In this document: piece by piece, positions 49,445-57,021 of the stretch
Layout of the letters: every line of letters starts with the position of its first letter
How positions within the stretch are numbered: the first letter of the stretch is position 1
Assembly (NCBI GenBank): GCA_965248435.1
Contig: OZ252100.1
Location: 2,016,001-2,080,000 of the forward strand
Direction of reading: 5' to 3'
Source: Candidatus Latescibacterota bacterium
GTDB taxonomy: Bacteria > Latescibacterota > UBA2968 > GCA-2709665
DNA: 64,000 nucleotides
Translations under genes and position numbers: made by a program
Notes under the pieces: model-generated
Told to the model about the DNA's origin: nothing
What the model saw: the letters and a program-made list of their open reading frames with translations, nothing else
Database searches by the model: none

Positions 49445-50242
49445 TTAGAAGGGAATGCGCAGCCCATCATATGCCATTTTGAGCCCTGGATTCTCCCTGA
49501 GAACGTCGGTGCGCCTGTCCTCGTCGAATCCTGCAATTAGTGCCCCGTCCCTCCAACTGTGAAAAGACATGTGTGTCAGGATACACTCTCTGCTTCCTAT
49601 CTCCTTCCAGACTTCGATCGCTCCCGCGATATCAAGGTTGTGCCAACCTTCTGCATCAAGCTCATCCATTGTAGCCTCCAGAATGAGCAAGTCCACACCG
49701 CTAAGTAACTCTAATGTGTCATCCGGCGGCCGGACGCCATCGCCCAGATAGGCGATTCGTCGCTTACCCTCAATGATGAAACCAACACTATCTTTGAAAT
49801 GAGACGTCTTGACCGGAATATAGCGCAGTAAGCCAATATTCAAGGTCATCCCTGCTTCAATCACACGTAAATCGCAGGTTTTCTTCATATAACTCAGTTC
49901 CTGCTCCAAATGGACCAATCCCGACGCAGGAGTGTATAATGGGAGCTTTTCCCATTTGTGAATAAATGCGGCTTCGTGAAACTCCCCAAGCCCCGCGATG
50001 TGGTCAAAATGCCAGTGAGTGATGAGGATCGCATCCACCTTCTGGATTGACTCCCTTTCAAGCTGTTCGGCTATGTCGGGTCCCGCATCGATAAGTGTCG
50101 TCTGGCTATCTATGATTGCAAGAGCAGATCGCGTTCGTCTAGCAATGGCACCTTGGCGAGTTGCCTCGCAAATGGCGCAGGAGCAATGAAAGGAAGGGAG
50201 CCGCAGGGCAGCAGCAGTTCCAAGGAAGGCTATCTCAGGCAA
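49445..50242 (-). CDS. MBL-fold metallo-hydrolase, PhnP-like (cassette)
   Basis: FLGT, CSCAIC, THWHFDH, LTHMS, AYDG. Confidence 0.88.
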   Translation of the reverse strand: MPEIAFLGTAAALRLPSFHCSCAICEATRQGAIARRTRSALAIIDSQTTLIDAGPDIAEQLERESIQKVDAILITHWHFDHIAGLGEFHEAAFIHKWEKLPLYTPASGLVHLEQELSYMKKTCDLRVIEAGMTLNIGLLRYIPVKTSHFKDSVGFIIEGKRRIAYLGDGVRPPDDTLELLSGVDLLILEATMDELDAEGWHNLDIAGAIEVWKEIGSRECILTHMSFHSWRDGALIAGFDEDRRTDVLRENPGLKMAYDGLRIPF

Positions 50243-50304
50243 GTCAAATTCCTTTAGTCATTCCGCAGTTGAGGCTCGCAGCACTGCGCATTGTATCTTG
50301 AAAA

Positions 50305-50470
50305 TATGATCTATTTGTAGATTATCTTGGTTCGAAGAAGACCTCTGGGGAGGCCGGATTGCGCATGAAGGCATTGACCTTGGACGTTAGATAGGCCCCC
50401 CGCCTTCTTGGCCCATGCCGAGGAGTATCCGAGACCCGAGAGTCTGTATCACAAGGCTGGTAGGCCAGGT
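50305..50470 (+). ncRNA. Predicted IS110 bridge RNA (target-binding and donor-binding loops)
   Basis: Stem ggggaggcc/ggcccccc encloses guides TTGCGCAT and ACGTTA (match target TGCGCAT|AACGT); stem tggcc/ggcca encloses GAGTATC and ACAAG (match donor junction GAGTATCT|TGT). Confidence 0.8.
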
Positions 50471-50513
50471 GCAAGGTCGGGGGACCAGAGGTACAAATAA
50501 GGAGGGAGAGATC

Positions 50514-51506
50514 ATGAAGCAAGAGAATCTGTTGGGGGTAGATGTCTCAGCCCGGGAGCTGGTGGTCGCGATCCGTCGCTCAGGGAAAGCGTATCCACTG
50601 GCAAGATTTCCCAACACAGGCGAAGGGCACCGTCGATTGATCAAGTGGGCGACAAAGTGGGGAAAGCCGGCTCGAGTGGGAGTCGAGGCCACAGGCATCT
50701 ATAGTTTTGAGGTGGCGTTGGCGTTGTATCGGCATCCGAAGACTCAGGTGATGGTAATCAACCCCAGAGCGCTGAGGAATTTCTCTCAGGCTTTGATGAA
50801 ACGGGGGAAAACCGACCCGATCGATGCGGAAGTGGCATTGGAGTATGTGCAGCGGATGCCCTTCCAGACGTGGCAGGCACCCCGTGATGAAGTACTTGAC
50901 CTGCAGGCGATTACACGCCGGATCGCGCAGATCAAAGTCGAGATCAACCGGGAAGGAAACCGGCTTCACGCTTCCACGCAACGCCCATCGGTCGCGTCTG
51001 CGGTCGCCTTGGACATCGAAGAGCATGTTGAACATCTCAAAGCGCGTGTGCAGCAGCTGAAAGCGCGGGCTCTGGAGCTCATTGAGGGGGAAGCCACTCT
51101 GCGCGAGAAGTTCGCGCGATTGACTTCCGTTCACGGGATCGCAGCAACCAGCGCGATGGGCATTCTGGCAGAGATTTCGATGTTGCCTGCCGACATGAAG
51201 CCTGCCCAATGGGTGGCCTACGCAGGCCTGGATCCACGACCCCACGAATCGGGAGACACGATTCAGAAGCGCCGAGTGATCTCCAAAGCGGGGAATAAGT
51301 ACTTACGAACCGCCTTATATATGCCAGCGCTGGTGGCCATTCAACAGCAGCCCAATGTGAAGGCGTTCTACGAAAAACTCATCAGTCGAGGCAAGAAGCC
51401 CATGCAGGGGGTCATCGCGGTGATGCGAAAGCTGCTTCACTCCATCTGGGGTATTCTCCAACACAACCAGGACTTCGACGGAGAAAAGTTCTACAAAATG
51501 GCTTGA
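50514..51506 (+). CDS. IS110 recombinase (DEDD RuvC-like + Tnp20)
   Basis: GVDVS, VEATG, KTDPID, AYAGLDP..HESG, ISKAGNKYLR, AVMRKL. Confidence 0.95.
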   Translation: MKQENLLGVDVSARELVVAIRRSGKAYPLARFPNTGEGHRRLIKWATKWGKPARVGVEATGIYSFEVALALYRHPKTQVMVINPRALRNFSQALMKRGKTDPIDAEVALEYVQRMPFQTWQAPRDEVLDLQAITRRIAQIKVEINREGNRLHASTQRPSVASAVALDIEEHVEHLKARVQQLKARALELIEGEATLREKFARLTSVHGIAATSAMGILAEISMLPADMKPAQWVAYAGLDPRPHESGDTIQKRRVISKAGNKYLRTALYMPALVAIQQQPNVKAFYEKLISRGKKPMQGVIAVMRKLLHSIWGILQHNQDFDGEKFYKMA

Positions 51507-51519
51507 CCACCAAGAGAGT

Positions 51520-51612
51520 ATCTAACGTTCCCGCCACTTGCGAACCCGCCCCCAGGCGGGTTGCCGCAGGCCAAGGCGCGGATGCGCCGCAGCGCAAGTG
51601 GACGTGTTATGG
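51520..51612 (-). repeat. attC-like site (outer end replaced by IS110)
   Basis: taacgttcccgccacttgcg...cgcaagtggacgtgttatg. Confidence 0.9.
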
Positions 51613-51678
51613 GCTTGTGCCAGTTTGGAATTGGGCAAGAACATACAGTGGACGGCTATTACCTAGATTCCCAGGTCT

Positions 51679-52560
51679 TTAGTCGAACCTCTTCTGATAA
51701 CCACTGGCTTGGAGAAATTGTTCGAAGTCGTCAATGATAAGCATATTTCGGACTGCCTGACTCTTGTCAGAAGTAAGGTGATAGTACGATTCACAGATCT
51801 TGTAACCAATGAAGTACCCAAGATCGGCTGGGCGGCCCTTTGCCTTATCCGCATTGTATAGCCAATCGCTATGATCATTTCCGTTCATCTTCTCACGAAA
51901 GTCAATCCATAACTCACGCTCATGTAAGTTGCCATACTCATGGATATGTTCGTTGATATGTATGCCTGCAACAAGCTCTCCCAAGAAATCCGCTGAGCCT
52001 TCATCGATTGACTTCCTAAGAAGTGTCATCTCACCGTTTGGAAATCTCTGCTGACAATGAATCAGTTCGTGCATGACGATAAACGGAATGTCTTCCACTG
52101 GCTTTAAGACCTGTTTGTGCCAGTCACCCAGTTCTTCAAGAGGCGTCTCCCGCGTCCTGCCGTACATCTCCGCCCCGATTAAGAGGCCATTGTCCGAGGT
52201 TGTGCCTCCAGTGCGCATCCTTCCAATCACGAAAAAGACATCTGGAAACACCGAATCAGGATAGAGATGGTTCAACCTTAGGAAGTAGCTCCTAATTTCG
52301 TCCGTCATTTCGGCGATCCGAAGCGTACTCTCTCTCACTGATCGATAATAGCCAGGATGATGATCAATCGCTTTGACCAGGGCTTCGGGATTCTCAATGC
52401 GCATTCTGATGAAGTCTTCGAGTCCCTTCGTCCCCTTGTCGAGATACTCCGTCGCGAAGATCCGGATGCGCTCTTCACCTGTCACATCCCGTGCTAAGTC
52501 AAAAGCCCTCCAGAAATTATCGATGTCTGAAGTGATAAGTCGTGCTTCATCAGATTCCAT
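51679..52560 (-). CDS. Zn-dependent protease, DUF2268-like (cassette)
   Basis: HELIH, EGSADF, DLGYFIGY. Confidence 0.8.
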   Translation of the reverse strand: MESDEARLITSDIDNFWRAFDLARDVTGEERIRIFATEYLDKGTKGLEDFIRMRIENPEALVKAIDHHPGYYRSVRESTLRIAEMTDEIRSYFLRLNHLYPDSVFPDVFFVIGRMRTGGTTSDNGLLIGAEMYGRTRETPLEELGDWHKQVLKPVEDIPFIVMHELIHCQQRFPNGEMTLLRKSIDEGSADFLGELVAGIHINEHIHEYGNLHERELWIDFREKMNGNDHSDWLYNADKAKGRPADLGYFIGYKICESYYHLTSDKSQAVRNMLIIDDFEQFLQASGYQKRFD

Positions 52561-54462: not shown

Positions 54463-54537
54463 CGCTAACGATTAAGCGTGTATCCGGAGTCGGAGAAGCG
54501 TGGACGGGAGCGGGATTCCGGATACACGGTGTTGAAC
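54463..54537 (-). repeat. attC-like site of distinct sequence abutting the recombinase/HUH element
   Basis: ctaacgattaagCGTGTATCCGGAgTC...GATTCCGGATACACGgtgttgaac. Confidence 0.8.
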
Positions 54538-54742
54538 GAAGCCGCTTCACCTGCCTATGGGGATTGGATGAGTGATTCTTGTGTAAGGACCGCTGGGCTG
54601 GCCCAGTCATCGGACCGTATTTGAAGCTGTTTGGAGGGGCCGATGTCGCAGGATCCCATAGTCGCTCTACCAAGCTCAAAGAGTGGACAGACTACTGCCG
54701 TGTTGGGTGGTTGGGCTTGCGGACAAGGGATGGTGTAGGAGC

Positions 54743-55933
54743 TCAAGCTACGGCAACATGTGCCGGAGGCGCTCGCAGAGGCGCGAGGGTTCCGACTGTG
54801 AGCATAGGGCCTCCGCACTGCGCACAGACCTGAAGATCGATGCCTGTTACCCGGAACAGAAGGTCCTGCCAGGTCGCCTTTGTGGCTGCGGAAGCCGTCG
54901 TGCATACAGTGCCCAGGAGCCTACGGCATCGTGCGAGCTTTTTCCGGCGACCCCGATTGCTGAGCAGTCCGTAGTGCCGGATCTTCACGAAGCCATCCGG
55001 CAGGATGTGAAGCAGGAACCGCCGGATGAACTCGTAGGCATCGACGGTCATCAGCTTCCGTCGGTTGCCGGCCTGGCGGTCCCGGTAGTGGAATGAGACC
55101 CGGTCGCCCTCACAGGCGACCAGCCGGTGGTTGGAGATGGCGATCCGGTGCGTGTATCGTCCCAGATAGGCCACGATGCGTTCTGGACCCGCAAAAGTCG
55201 GCTTGACGTAAACGGTCCATTCCCTCTGGTAAAGACCCCGAAGCAGATCGAAGAACGCATCTTCCAGTGGAGCACTCAATCCCGGGAACGCCAGAAGGCC
55301 TTCCTGGTGCGCGTCCTTCAGGAACGCAAGGAACTTCCCCCGGAACAGTCGGGACAGAACTTTTACGGGTAGAAAGAAGCCCCGTCGCGCCGCCTTCCAT
55401 TCCTGACCGTCGTGGGTCAGCCCACCTCCAGTTACGATACAGTGCAGATGCGGGTGGTCGATGAGTGTCTGAGACCACGTATGAAGCACGGCGGTAAAGC
55501 CGATCTGCGCTCCAAGATACTTCCGTTCCCGCGCCAGCTCCAGAAGACTCTGCGATGCGGCTTTAAACACCAGGTTGTAGATCAGCTTCTGGTTCCGCAG
55601 AGCAAGCGGCCGCAGGGGCTCGGGCAACGTGAAGACGACGTGGAAGTATGGGATCGGAAGGAGATCCTCTTTACGAGCGTCGATCCATCGTTCGGTCGTC
55701 AGGAACTGGCACTTCGTACAGTGCCGGTTGCGGCAGGAGTTGTAGGCGATCCGCTTCGTTCCGCACTGCCCGCACACTTCCACGTGTCCGCCCAGCGCAG
55801 CTGTTCGGCAGATCTGGATGGCTCGCATGGCCCGCTTCTGCCGAAGCGGCATGTGATCACCGTAGTGTGCTTGATACCCATCTCCGTGGACTCGGAAGAT
55901 GTCGGCGACTTCGAGAGGCTGTGACATGGCCAA
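54743..55933 (-). CDS. IS91-family (Y2/HUH) rolling-circle transposase with Zn-binding domain
   Basis: CRTAALGGH, SCRNRHCTKCQ, YFHVVFTLP, HPHLH (HUH), YLGRY (Y2), RFLLHILP. Confidence 0.93.
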   Translation of the reverse strand: MAMSQPLEVADIFRVHGDGYQAHYGDHMPLRQKRAMRAIQICRTAALGGHVEVCGQCGTKRIAYNSCRNRHCTKCQFLTTERWIDARKEDLLPIPYFHVVFTLPEPLRPLALRNQKLIYNLVFKAASQSLLELARERKYLGAQIGFTAVLHTWSQTLIDHPHLHCIVTGGGLTHDGQEWKAARRGFFLPVKVLSRLFRGKFLAFLKDAHQEGLLAFPGLSAPLEDAFFDLLRGLYQREWTVYVKPTFAGPERIVAYLGRYTHRIAISNHRLVACEGDRVSFHYRDRQAGNRRKLMTVDAYEFIRRFLLHILPDGFVKIRHYGLLSNRGRRKKLARCRRLLGTVCTTASAATKATWQDLLFRVTGIDLQVCAQCGGPMLTVGTLAPLRAPPAHVAVA

Positions 55934-55939
55934 CCTCTG

Positions 55940-56791
55940 CTACAAGGTCGGCTTGTCTTCATCTCCCAAAAGGTCCAGGGGGCTTCTGATACGCGTGAGA
56001 TCGCGAGTGGTGACGTGGAGGTAGACGGTGGTGGTTCGCAGGCTCGTGTGACCCAACAGTTGTTGGACGAAACGGACGTCCACTCCGTTGTCCAGAAGAT
56101 GTGTGGCGAAGCTGTGACGCAGAGAATGGACACTCGCACGCTTTTGTATCTCGGCGCGTCGGCAGGCCTGCTCGAAGACTTTCTGGACACTGCGGGCGTG
56201 GAGCGGTGCATCCGGTCTTTCGCCAGGGAACAGCCAATCGCGAGGCTGGTAGCTGCGCCAGTAGACGCGGAGTGCCTTTAACGCCTCCTGGGCCAGAAGC
56301 GTCTCTCGCTCTTTTTGGCCTTTGCCCCGCACACGGATCAGCATCCGGTCACTGTCGATATCGGAAAGCTTTAGCCCGATGGCCTCACTCAGTCTGAGCC
56401 CACCAGAGTAAATGACCATCAGCAGCGTACGGTGTTTCAGGTTGTTGGTCCTGTCGATCAGCCGCTGCACTTCCTCTGTGGAGAGTACCACCGGGAGCTT
56501 CTTTGCCTTCTTCGCACGAGGGATGCCCCACTCGACCCAGTCACGCTTCAACGTCGTTTGGAACAGAAACTTCAGTCCGCTGTATACCTGGTTGACATAG
56601 CTTTGGGACAGCTTCCGCTCAGTGATCAGATAGTGCAGATAGGCGCGGATCTCTTCTTCGCTGAGCCGGTCGGGCGGTGTCTTGCAGTAACGACACAGCC
56701 CGGCCACTCCGCTCACGTACGCCTTCTGCGTATCCGGATCTAAACCTTTCAACTGCATGTCCCGGATCATTCGCTTCCGATGCTTGGTCAT
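55940..56791 (-). CDS. Tyrosine recombinase, IntI-related but lacking the IntI-specific insertion
   Basis: LPVVLSTEEV, YSGGLRLSE, HSLRHSFATHLL, LLGHTSLRTTTVY; only 283 aa with a short LFP-to-HxxR segment. Confidence 0.92.
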   Translation of the reverse strand: MTKHRKRMIRDMQLKGLDPDTQKAYVSGVAGLCRYCKTPPDRLSEEEIRAYLHYLITERKLSQSYVNQVYSGLKFLFQTTLKRDWVEWGIPRAKKAKKLPVVLSTEEVQRLIDRTNNLKHRTLLMVIYSGGLRLSEAIGLKLSDIDSDRMLIRVRGKGQKERETLLAQEALKALRVYWRSYQPRDWLFPGERPDAPLHARSVQKVFEQACRRAEIQKRASVHSLRHSFATHLLDNGVDVRFVQQLLGHTSLRTTTVYLHVTTRDLTRIRSPLDLLGDEDKPTL

Positions 56792-56942
56792 GGCTCTCTC
56801 CTTCTGCTGATGGTGGACGTTGTTAGCAGAAGGAGGATGCGAAGCACAGAGCCATTTGCAAAGTGGCTCCGGACTTGCACGGTATCATATCCTGGTTGTC
56901 AAAGAGCAAAGGCCTTGCAGCAGGCCACCGCGAAGCGGTTTA

Positions 56943-57021
56943 GTTCAACTTCTGCATTCGCGTACTTCGTGGATTCCACCAAGGTACGAGTATCTGCGCC
57001 CTACGCCTATCCCGGTTAAAC
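56943..57021 (-). repeat. Possible attC-like hairpin at the other end of the element
   Basis: gttcaac...gtacttcgt...acgagta...gttaaac; imperfect pairing. Confidence 0.4.

Follow-up and report, generated by a model that had tools for sequence, protein, structure and literature searches.

What sends an insertion sequence time after time to the junctions between integron cassettes? The question is raised by a 1232-bp IS110-family element in the genome of a Candidatus Latescibacterota bacterium, within a stretch of 64,000 nt (contig OZ252100.1, positions 2,016,001 to 2,080,000) that we analysed as a whole and refer to as the window. The element occupies positions 50292-51523 of the window on the plus strand. 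It lies in a cassette array (42-63 kb) with 13 in-register copies of attC, an imperfect palindrome with inverse-core and core boxes (consensus RYYYAAC / GTTRRRY) that is repeated between cassettes. From its sequence, we conclude that this is very probably a bridge-RNA-guided element of the IS110 group directed at the attC core site. The conclusion builds on the sequence, the genomic copies and their junctions, the fold, the conserved catalytic residues and a covariation of guides with targets across lineages, all of which were directly established. The bridge-RNA mechanism and attC as a class of target are each already known. Targeting of attC by the IS110 group was not found in the literature searched, supplements excepted; targets of IS110 elements might appear in Supplementary Table 5 of PMC11208160.

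The element and its insertion sites

The element begins with a noncoding left end of 222 nt (50292-50513, plus strand), proposed here as the bridge RNA gene. It is followed by a gene for a transposase/recombinase of 330 aa (50514-51506, plus strand), with only 17 nt remaining 3' of the stop codon. This arrangement confirms an IS110-group (left-end) layout, the type to which the original prediction had assigned the element. The protein carries both IS110-family domains, PF01548 (DEDD_Tnp_IS110; 9.5e-23, 81.1 bits against a cut-off of 29) and PF02371 (Transposase_20; 1.6e-19, 70.5 bits against a cut-off of 21.3). Its nearest solved structures are the bridge recombinases ISCro4 (2.9e-40) and IS621 (2.1e-38). 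Residues D10, E58, D101, D104 and S246 align to D11, E60, D102, D105 and S241 of IS621 (numbering from PMC11208158), all five being identical. Near the two ends lie short subterminal inverted repeats, TCTTG (50296-50300) and its partner CAAGA (51511-51515), both given on the plus strand.

The ends of the element were set by alignment of the junctions. In the window copy, the left junction reads ...CTGCGCAT|TGTATC and the right junction GAGTATCT|AACGTT. A target duplication is absent, and a core dinucleotide is found at both junctions (NT on the left, CT on the right). When the flanks are rejoined without the element, the result agrees with intact attC R-boxes in both length and pattern. The left target plus core, CTGCGC-AT (50284-50291, plus strand), is the left piece of the split R-box; the right target (AACGT...) and the remainder of the split attC extend to the other R-box, GTTATGG (51524-51616, plus strand).

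A search of the genome returned five matches, namely three full copies, one truncated left end and one 26-nt match. Two of the full copies are at 100% identity (rounded), the second copy differing from the window copy at one base, and the third is at 98%; the left ends are identical in all three. Every full copy was found at one and the same point of an attC R-box (NNNNNNNT|AACGTT), in three arrays with unrelated flanks. The left and right flanks are CTGCGCAT and AACGTTCCC for the window copy, TGGCTCAT and AACGTTCCC for the second copy and TTGCATCT and AACGTTCTC for the third, where the left pieces again comprise the left target and core.

The position of the insertion within attC depends on the direction in which the arrays are read. 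Cassette genes lie on the minus strand and a 2.48-kb unit with six copies is bounded by G|TT at both ends, also on the minus strand; the arrays are therefore read on the minus strand. By this orientation, the insertion interrupts the R' core site, GTT|ATGC, at the 3' end of attC, 2 nt from the canonical G|TT integrase crossover. 'Cassette junction', the name under which this site was first described, is thus apt. In the original prediction, such junctions would possibly serve the element as a safe harbour. The transposase is encoded antisense to the cassettes, with the insertion placed 49 nt upstream of the gene in the next cassette. The right junction, ATCTAAC, fits the RYYYAAC box consensus, and use of this rebuilt box by an integrase is a matter of speculation.

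One observation on the arms of attC points the other way as regards orientation. On the arm that gene orientation makes R'-L', the R and L boxes are separated by a spacer with 2-3 nt more, both in the interrupted attC and in other sites of the array. Canonical attC sites are described as carrying extrahelical bases in the R''-L'' arm. That would make the plus strand the top strand; gene orientation and the boundaries of the six-copy unit say the opposite and were followed.

Guides and scaffold of the putative bridge RNA

The fold of the left end places a 5' stem-loop (50306-50325) before a target-binding loop (50347-50401), which is followed in turn by a donor-binding loop (50407-50469), all on the plus strand. 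In the target loop, the outer stem pairs GGGGAGGCC (50347-50355) with GGCCCCCC (50394-50401) and the inner hairpin pairs AAGG (50368-50371) with CCTT (50378-50381). This loop holds the putative left target guide TTGCGCAT (50359-50366), in the same sense as the left target plus core, and the putative right target guide ACGTTAG (50384-50390), antisense to CT plus AACGT. The donor loop is built from two stems (50407-50413/50463-50469 and 50416-50420/50458-50462) and an inner hairpin of AGAC (50432-50435) and GTCT (50442-50445). Its candidate guides are GAGTATC(C) on the left (50423-50430), in the same sense as the right end GAGTATCT, and ACAAG on the right (50451-50455), which is the antisense of the CT plus TGT found where the circle is joined. 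The motifs listed in the original prediction were all found where it had placed them, both for the target loop (its stem, the left guide, the aagg/cctt hairpin and ACGTTA at 50384-50389) and for the donor loop (GAGTATC at 50423-50429, the agac/gtct hairpin and ACAAG). We consider it highly likely, in one joint judgement with the direction to attC, that the left end encodes a two-loop, IS621-like bridge RNA.

The target guides stand out from the rest of the left end (222 nt). Against the left flank plus core, the best 9-mer in the same sense matched at 8/9 positions (at 50358; runner-up 5/9), and the best antisense 7-mer against the core plus right flank matched at 6/7 (at 50384), or 7/7 when the core is taken as CT. 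Both target matches in the observed order were obtained in just 11 of 20000 mononucleotide shuffles. This geometry agrees with the published IS110 rule, which has a same-sense left guide and an antisense right guide, both extending to the core (PMC11208160). The RNA is placed in the left end for IS110-group elements and in the right end for IS1111 elements (PMC11208160; PMC11187229).

The other genomic copies had been named beforehand as the place where the proposed guides could fail. All three full copies proved to lie in attC targets that match the guides, although imperfectly on the left: the right target matches its guide at 5/5 positions in all three, and the left target plus core at 8/9, 7/9 and 6/9 across the three. 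We also compared the guides with the attC sites of the genome at large. A pattern search for R-boxes that have a partner box gave 74 candidates; the element's own right junctions account for three, and 40 of the remaining 71 are in arrays. These sites were taken without a filter for likeness to the guide. The left target guide is the commonest base at 8/8 positions in the 40 array sites (with a tie at position 6) and at 7/8 positions over all 71 sites, and the right target AACGT is present in 31/40 array sites.

Variants of the left end were seen in the same genome and elsewhere. The truncated copy (L004, C1:4835981-4836236 of the genome under study, designated G000) retains left-end bases 1-257 at 94% identity, with an altered left guide (TTGCGCTT) and weakened stems; it is preceded by CTTTCGCCC, which resembles an attC R-box flank. 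Sequencing runs were compared at the level of contigs. Here, a 98% variant from the runs of another organism (X5, X6) carries T>G at 50360, which is base 2 of the left target guide, and its right flank again starts AACGTTC. A 96% variant was found in a hydrothermal-vent metagenome run. Neither an empty-site skip joint nor a circle joint from 51523 to 50292 was observed in the contigs of the sequencing runs. A single contig of X6 has a joint that goes back from 51537 to 50289 at a depth of 2; this differs from the circle junction and was not used.

Relatives of the transposase were found by protein search in 5/61 related genomes (E <= 1e-40) and in 11/168 genomes of the phylum (E <= 1e-90), G000 being included in both counts. 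A pattern search of genome contigs for related loci gave 26 matches, of which none was confirmed. Transposase identity to the relatives is 51-58%, and 46.9% to a copy on a Salinibacter ruber plasmid. We then took 35 copies, which represent 10 lineages with transposase identities of 47-100%, and scanned their loop strands against the flanks of every lineage in free register. Guides matched the flanks of their own lineage at 11.0-13.0 of 15 positions, against an average of 7.7 for the 90 cross-lineage pairs. Only four of these 90 pairs reached 11, and three of the four join lineages with like targets (G000 to G057, G000 to G102 and G022 to G034). Over the 10 related lineages, the guides occupy the variable positions of the loops and follow the insertion site, which bears out the proposal that they are programmed against the cassette junction. 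The scan omitted L044 of G123 (upstream part outside the stretch), L048 of G109 (partial gene), L004 (the truncated copy of G000) and L027 of G034 (nested copies); it kept L049, with a mis-detected right end, and L009, read from an upstream partial start. A relative on an Acidisarcina plasmid (43% identity) was left aside, as it is present in a single copy and its right end could not be placed.

The lineages differ in where they insert. G057 and G102, which are other genomes, also have their copies in attC sites, with left guides ATGACGCCT and TTTCGGTT facing flanks ATGGCGCCT and TTTCGGCT, respectively. In G102 (L043), the right end is GAAAACCT instead of GAGTATCT and the left donor guide is changed to GAAAACC. 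We read this as a natural reprogramming of the donor, and it provides the sole direct covariation for the donor loop, in support of the left donor guide as originally drawn. The relatives in G022, G034 and G026 (loci L009-L035; 54-57% identity; 18, 35 and 7 matches per genome, respectively) are found in tandem CT-rich heptamer repeats (CTCNCCT-like), sometimes in or beside each other (L027, L009). The copy on the Salinibacter ruber plasmid pSR118 (L041, 35903-36982; 47% identity) has the same scaffold and an AT core on both target and donor; its site is GGGACAT|AACGGG and its guides are GGTACAT and CCGTTATAT.

Throughout these changes of target, the scaffold is retained. In an alignment of 14 left ends from 5 lineages, it is conserved and the variation falls mostly in the two target-loop strands. 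RNAalifold predicted both loops independently, with 95.3% of cells paired. Compensatory changes were present in 6/38 pairs, a number reached by 9/500 shuffles, and the donor-loop stems hold four of these six pairs. The covariation score of 0.187 was reached by 0/500 shuffles, and slid-partner controls gave at most 0.056. In a tree of 14 transposases, made without row G026a (a 507-aa wrong open frame), a single clade with support 85/94 unites the three attC lineages and also includes G155 and G154, with other targets, and G123. The element belongs to a group of relatives with several natural changes of target.

Alternative explanations and comparison with known systems

Several points weigh against a bridge RNA directed at attC. 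The minimum-free-energy fold of the single sequence gives the target-loop stem and both inner hairpins, so that this part of the predicted fold was recovered, but its stability is at shuffle level (z = -0.73) and an Rfam scan of 49800-52000 gave zero family matches. The donor guides by themselves are not distinctive: a second 8/9 match to the right end lies at 50319, within the 5' stem-loop, while ACAAG shares its score of 5/7 with four other windows. Their assignment therefore rests on positional homology with relatives. The right target AACGTT is palindromic, which leaves the sense of the right guide ambiguous in this element alone. The scaffold covariation comes from only 14 sequences of 5 related lineages, with a structure derived from the same set. 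Two further points concern the targets. Some attC sites that match better stand empty: in the arrays, one site free of left-target mismatches and four sites with a single such mismatch carry no element. The left-target matches at the occupied sites are imperfect though IS621 tolerates mismatches poorly, and a factor beyond pairing may therefore contribute.

A second determinant could be structural. On this account, the folded attC hairpin is read by the recombinase and the guides only set the register, which we judge unlikely while giving it some weight. The element's targets are all attC, hence imperfect palindromes, and the 1-3 left-target mismatches at its natural sites exceed the tolerance of IS621. 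A dual-match logic involving a REP-type stem-loop is also reported for ISPpu10 (10.64898/2026.03.19.712850). Sister lineages with the same scaffold nevertheless insert in CT-rich heptamer repeats and at other sites not recognised as attC, where hairpins and palindromes were not searched; this suggests a protein lineage without a fixed need for the attC fold.

It is very improbable that the three copies spread by duplication or by integrase-driven movement of cassettes, as opposed to targeted transposition. Such movement would be in keeping with the separate six-copy unit of 2.5 kb, which has cassette-like bounds and resides in the same arrays, and with a right junction that resembles an R-box. 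The left flanks, attC bodies and neighbouring genes differ among the three copies, however, and identity ends exactly at the element ends.

Recognition of attC by protein-DNA contacts alone, the left-end matches being incidental or a captured scrap of attC, would accommodate the non-significant z-score of the fold and the empty Rfam scan. We regard it as highly doubtful, given how rarely both matches arose together in shuffled sequences and given that the loops change with the target in 10 lineages. Moreover, the two halves are on opposite senses with a conserved hairpin between them, unlike a captured piece of attC.

Membership of the known IS1111-attC group (ISPa21, ISPst6, ISKpn4), with which the element has in common the class of target and a transposase antisense to the cassettes, is exceedingly unlikely in view of a noncoding region upstream and not downstream of the gene, inverted repeats of just 5 bp, a bottom-strand match 5' of the top-strand match (the IS110 order), insertion at the opposite attC end and identities below 60% in all 2707 plasmid records with a match.

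The IS1111-attC group was reportedly first described by Tetu and Holmes in 2008 and by Post and Hall in 2009. Its members (ISPa21, ISPst6, ISKpn4 and ISPa25) resemble the present element in inserting into attC in one orientation, antisense to cassette transcription. They likewise have RNA segments that match both target strands, but their seekRNA is downstream of the gene and the strand matches are in reverse order (PMC11187229). Their inverted repeats are 7-17 bp long (PMC11208160), compared with the 5-bp CAAGA/TCTTG seen here, and they insert near the 5' end of attC (PMC3001079), whereas the present element splits the 3' R' core site.

Among known systems, the IS110-group bridge recombinases IS621 and ISCro4 come closest. 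Shared features are the DEDD plus Ser recombinase with its five aligned catalytic residues, a long left-end RNA with the order 5' stem-loop, target loop and donor loop, left guides that are same-sense and right guides that are antisense with an overlap at a two-base core, and short subterminal inverted repeats together with a promoter formed at the circle junction, which is predicted in our case. End-to-end protein matches to the two are weak (135-141 bits over ~320 residues). The target of IS621 is REP-like, whereas a repeated recombination site is used here, with natural sites that carry 1-3 left-target mismatches. The left and right target guides also disagree at the core (AU against CU), as does the donor guide with its donor (CC against CT), in distinction to both IS621 and ISCro4.

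Two other systems offer partial parallels. ISPpu10/ISPpu9-type elements belong to the IS110 group and are likewise aimed at a repeated palindromic intergenic sequence with many copies per genome; theirs is the REP repeat family, and a role of target structure has been demonstrated there (10.64898/2026.03.19.712850). Group IIC-attC introns are mobile elements homed to attC by RNA pairing, antisense to the cassettes, but they are retroelements with a reverse transcriptase and a different chemistry, and insert near the 5' end of attC (PMC3001079).

Two side observations concern the arrays themselves. The first is the 2.48-kb unit, which lies at 54470-56949 of the window on the minus strand; its six copies are 96-100% identical, with the others at C1:1447388, 3849740, 4651278, 4842164 and 5171408 of G000. 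The unit encodes a 396-aa IS91-type Y2 transposase that includes a zinc-binding domain, together with a 283-aa tyrosine recombinase, and has its own attC-like hairpin. Each copy begins directly after a variable attC R-box, and four of the six are within 3-10 kb of a copy of the IS110 element. The unit is either a cassette with an IS91-like element or an attC-targeting IS91-like element. The second concerns the integron integrase, for which a TIGR02249 search of the genome gave nothing above the 265-bit cut-off. A 92-aa open frame (C1:4954386-4954607) matches the C-terminus of the integrase over 74 residues (86.8 bits), in a genome with at least 40 attC sites in several arrays. It borders the array at 4.95 Mb and is encoded on the strand that also bears the cassettes read.

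Core, proposed cycle and implications

The core is where target and donor differ. The left-junction cores of the three copies are AT, AT and CT and the right-junction cores are always CT. Among the guides, AU stands in the left target guide, whereas the right target guide would pair with CU; the left donor guide has CC where the donor is CT and relatives read CU. A mismatch between the target and donor cores, as put forward in the original prediction, is thus found in two of the three copies (AT against the donor CT), but not in the third, where the target core is CT as well. The top-strand cut of IS621 falls 3' of the core (PMC11208158); each junction should therefore keep the core of its partner, as observed. 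Full core pairing is preferred by IS621 and mismatches are poorly tolerated. Two preprints describe transfer as mainly top-strand or single-strand, in which case a mismatch at the first core base would cost little. On the basis of three copies, the element looks more mismatch-tolerant than IS621.

The two ends also hold the halves of a predicted promoter. A -35 hexamer, TTGACC (51503-51508, plus strand), lies 15 nt from the right end, and a -10 hexamer, TATCTT (50294-50299, plus strand), starts at base 3 of the left end. When the ends are joined they give TTGACC-N17-TATCTT, so that the promoter would be complete only in the circle. Both hexamers and the 17-nt spacer are present as had been predicted, and the half-sites are conserved in relatives: the -10 hexamer is retained, and in the relatives read the distance between a TTGA-type hexamer and the right end is again exactly 15 nt. 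Junction promoters are known in this family (PMC11187229), and we infer the same function here.

These features can be assembled into a candidate cycle. The DEDD/Ser recombinase would join the element ends in a circular, possibly single-stranded, intermediate, in which the donor loop, through GAGTATC(C) and ACAAG, would hold the abutted ends GAGTATCT|TGTA. The circle joint would create the TTGACC-N17-TATCTT promoter and so drive both the RNA and the transposase. The guides of the target loop would jointly specify the R-box of the genome's attC sites: the right guide may clamp the nearly invariant half (T-AACGT), and the left guide would act as a consensus of the variable half. Such a combination would leave many attC sites open to the element despite 1-3 mismatches. 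Exchange into the attC site would then take place 3' of the core dinucleotide, with the left junction retaining the target NT and the right junction the donor CT. Expression of the RNA, the circle, the activity of its promoter and the current activity of the element are presumed steps of this cycle, and we infer the chemistry by homology with IS621.

A wider interpretation, which we put forward tentatively and think unlikely to hold as a whole, is that family-level targeting has evolved in the clade through the right-guide clamp, the consensus left guide, the disagreement at the first core base and the rebuilt box. One RNA may then enter dozens of non-identical attC sites, possibly aided by the attC hairpin. 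Equally, the rebuilt ATCTAAC may make the element the first part of the neighbouring cassette, to be carried by integron integrases between arrays and genomes.

For a bridge-RNA-guided element directed at the attC core site, the preferred explanation of this locus, several consequences follow. RNA-guided targeting of attC would no longer be confined to the IS1111 group but would include the IS110 group proper, as well as the other end of the attC site, and both branches of the family appear to have colonised integron arrays independently. The clade would represent a natural reprogramming series on a single conserved scaffold, comprising attC sites served by three different left guides, heptamer repeats rich in CT, two further types of site and a single altered donor end, which should be useful for learning which scaffold positions may vary. 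Its natural sites suggest a tolerance of mismatches in the left target and at the first core base above that reported for IS621, and this bears on off-target rules for bridge recombinases. In the arrays of this bacterium, an insertion this close to the crossover (2 nt) should affect both the excision of cassettes and the expression of those downstream.

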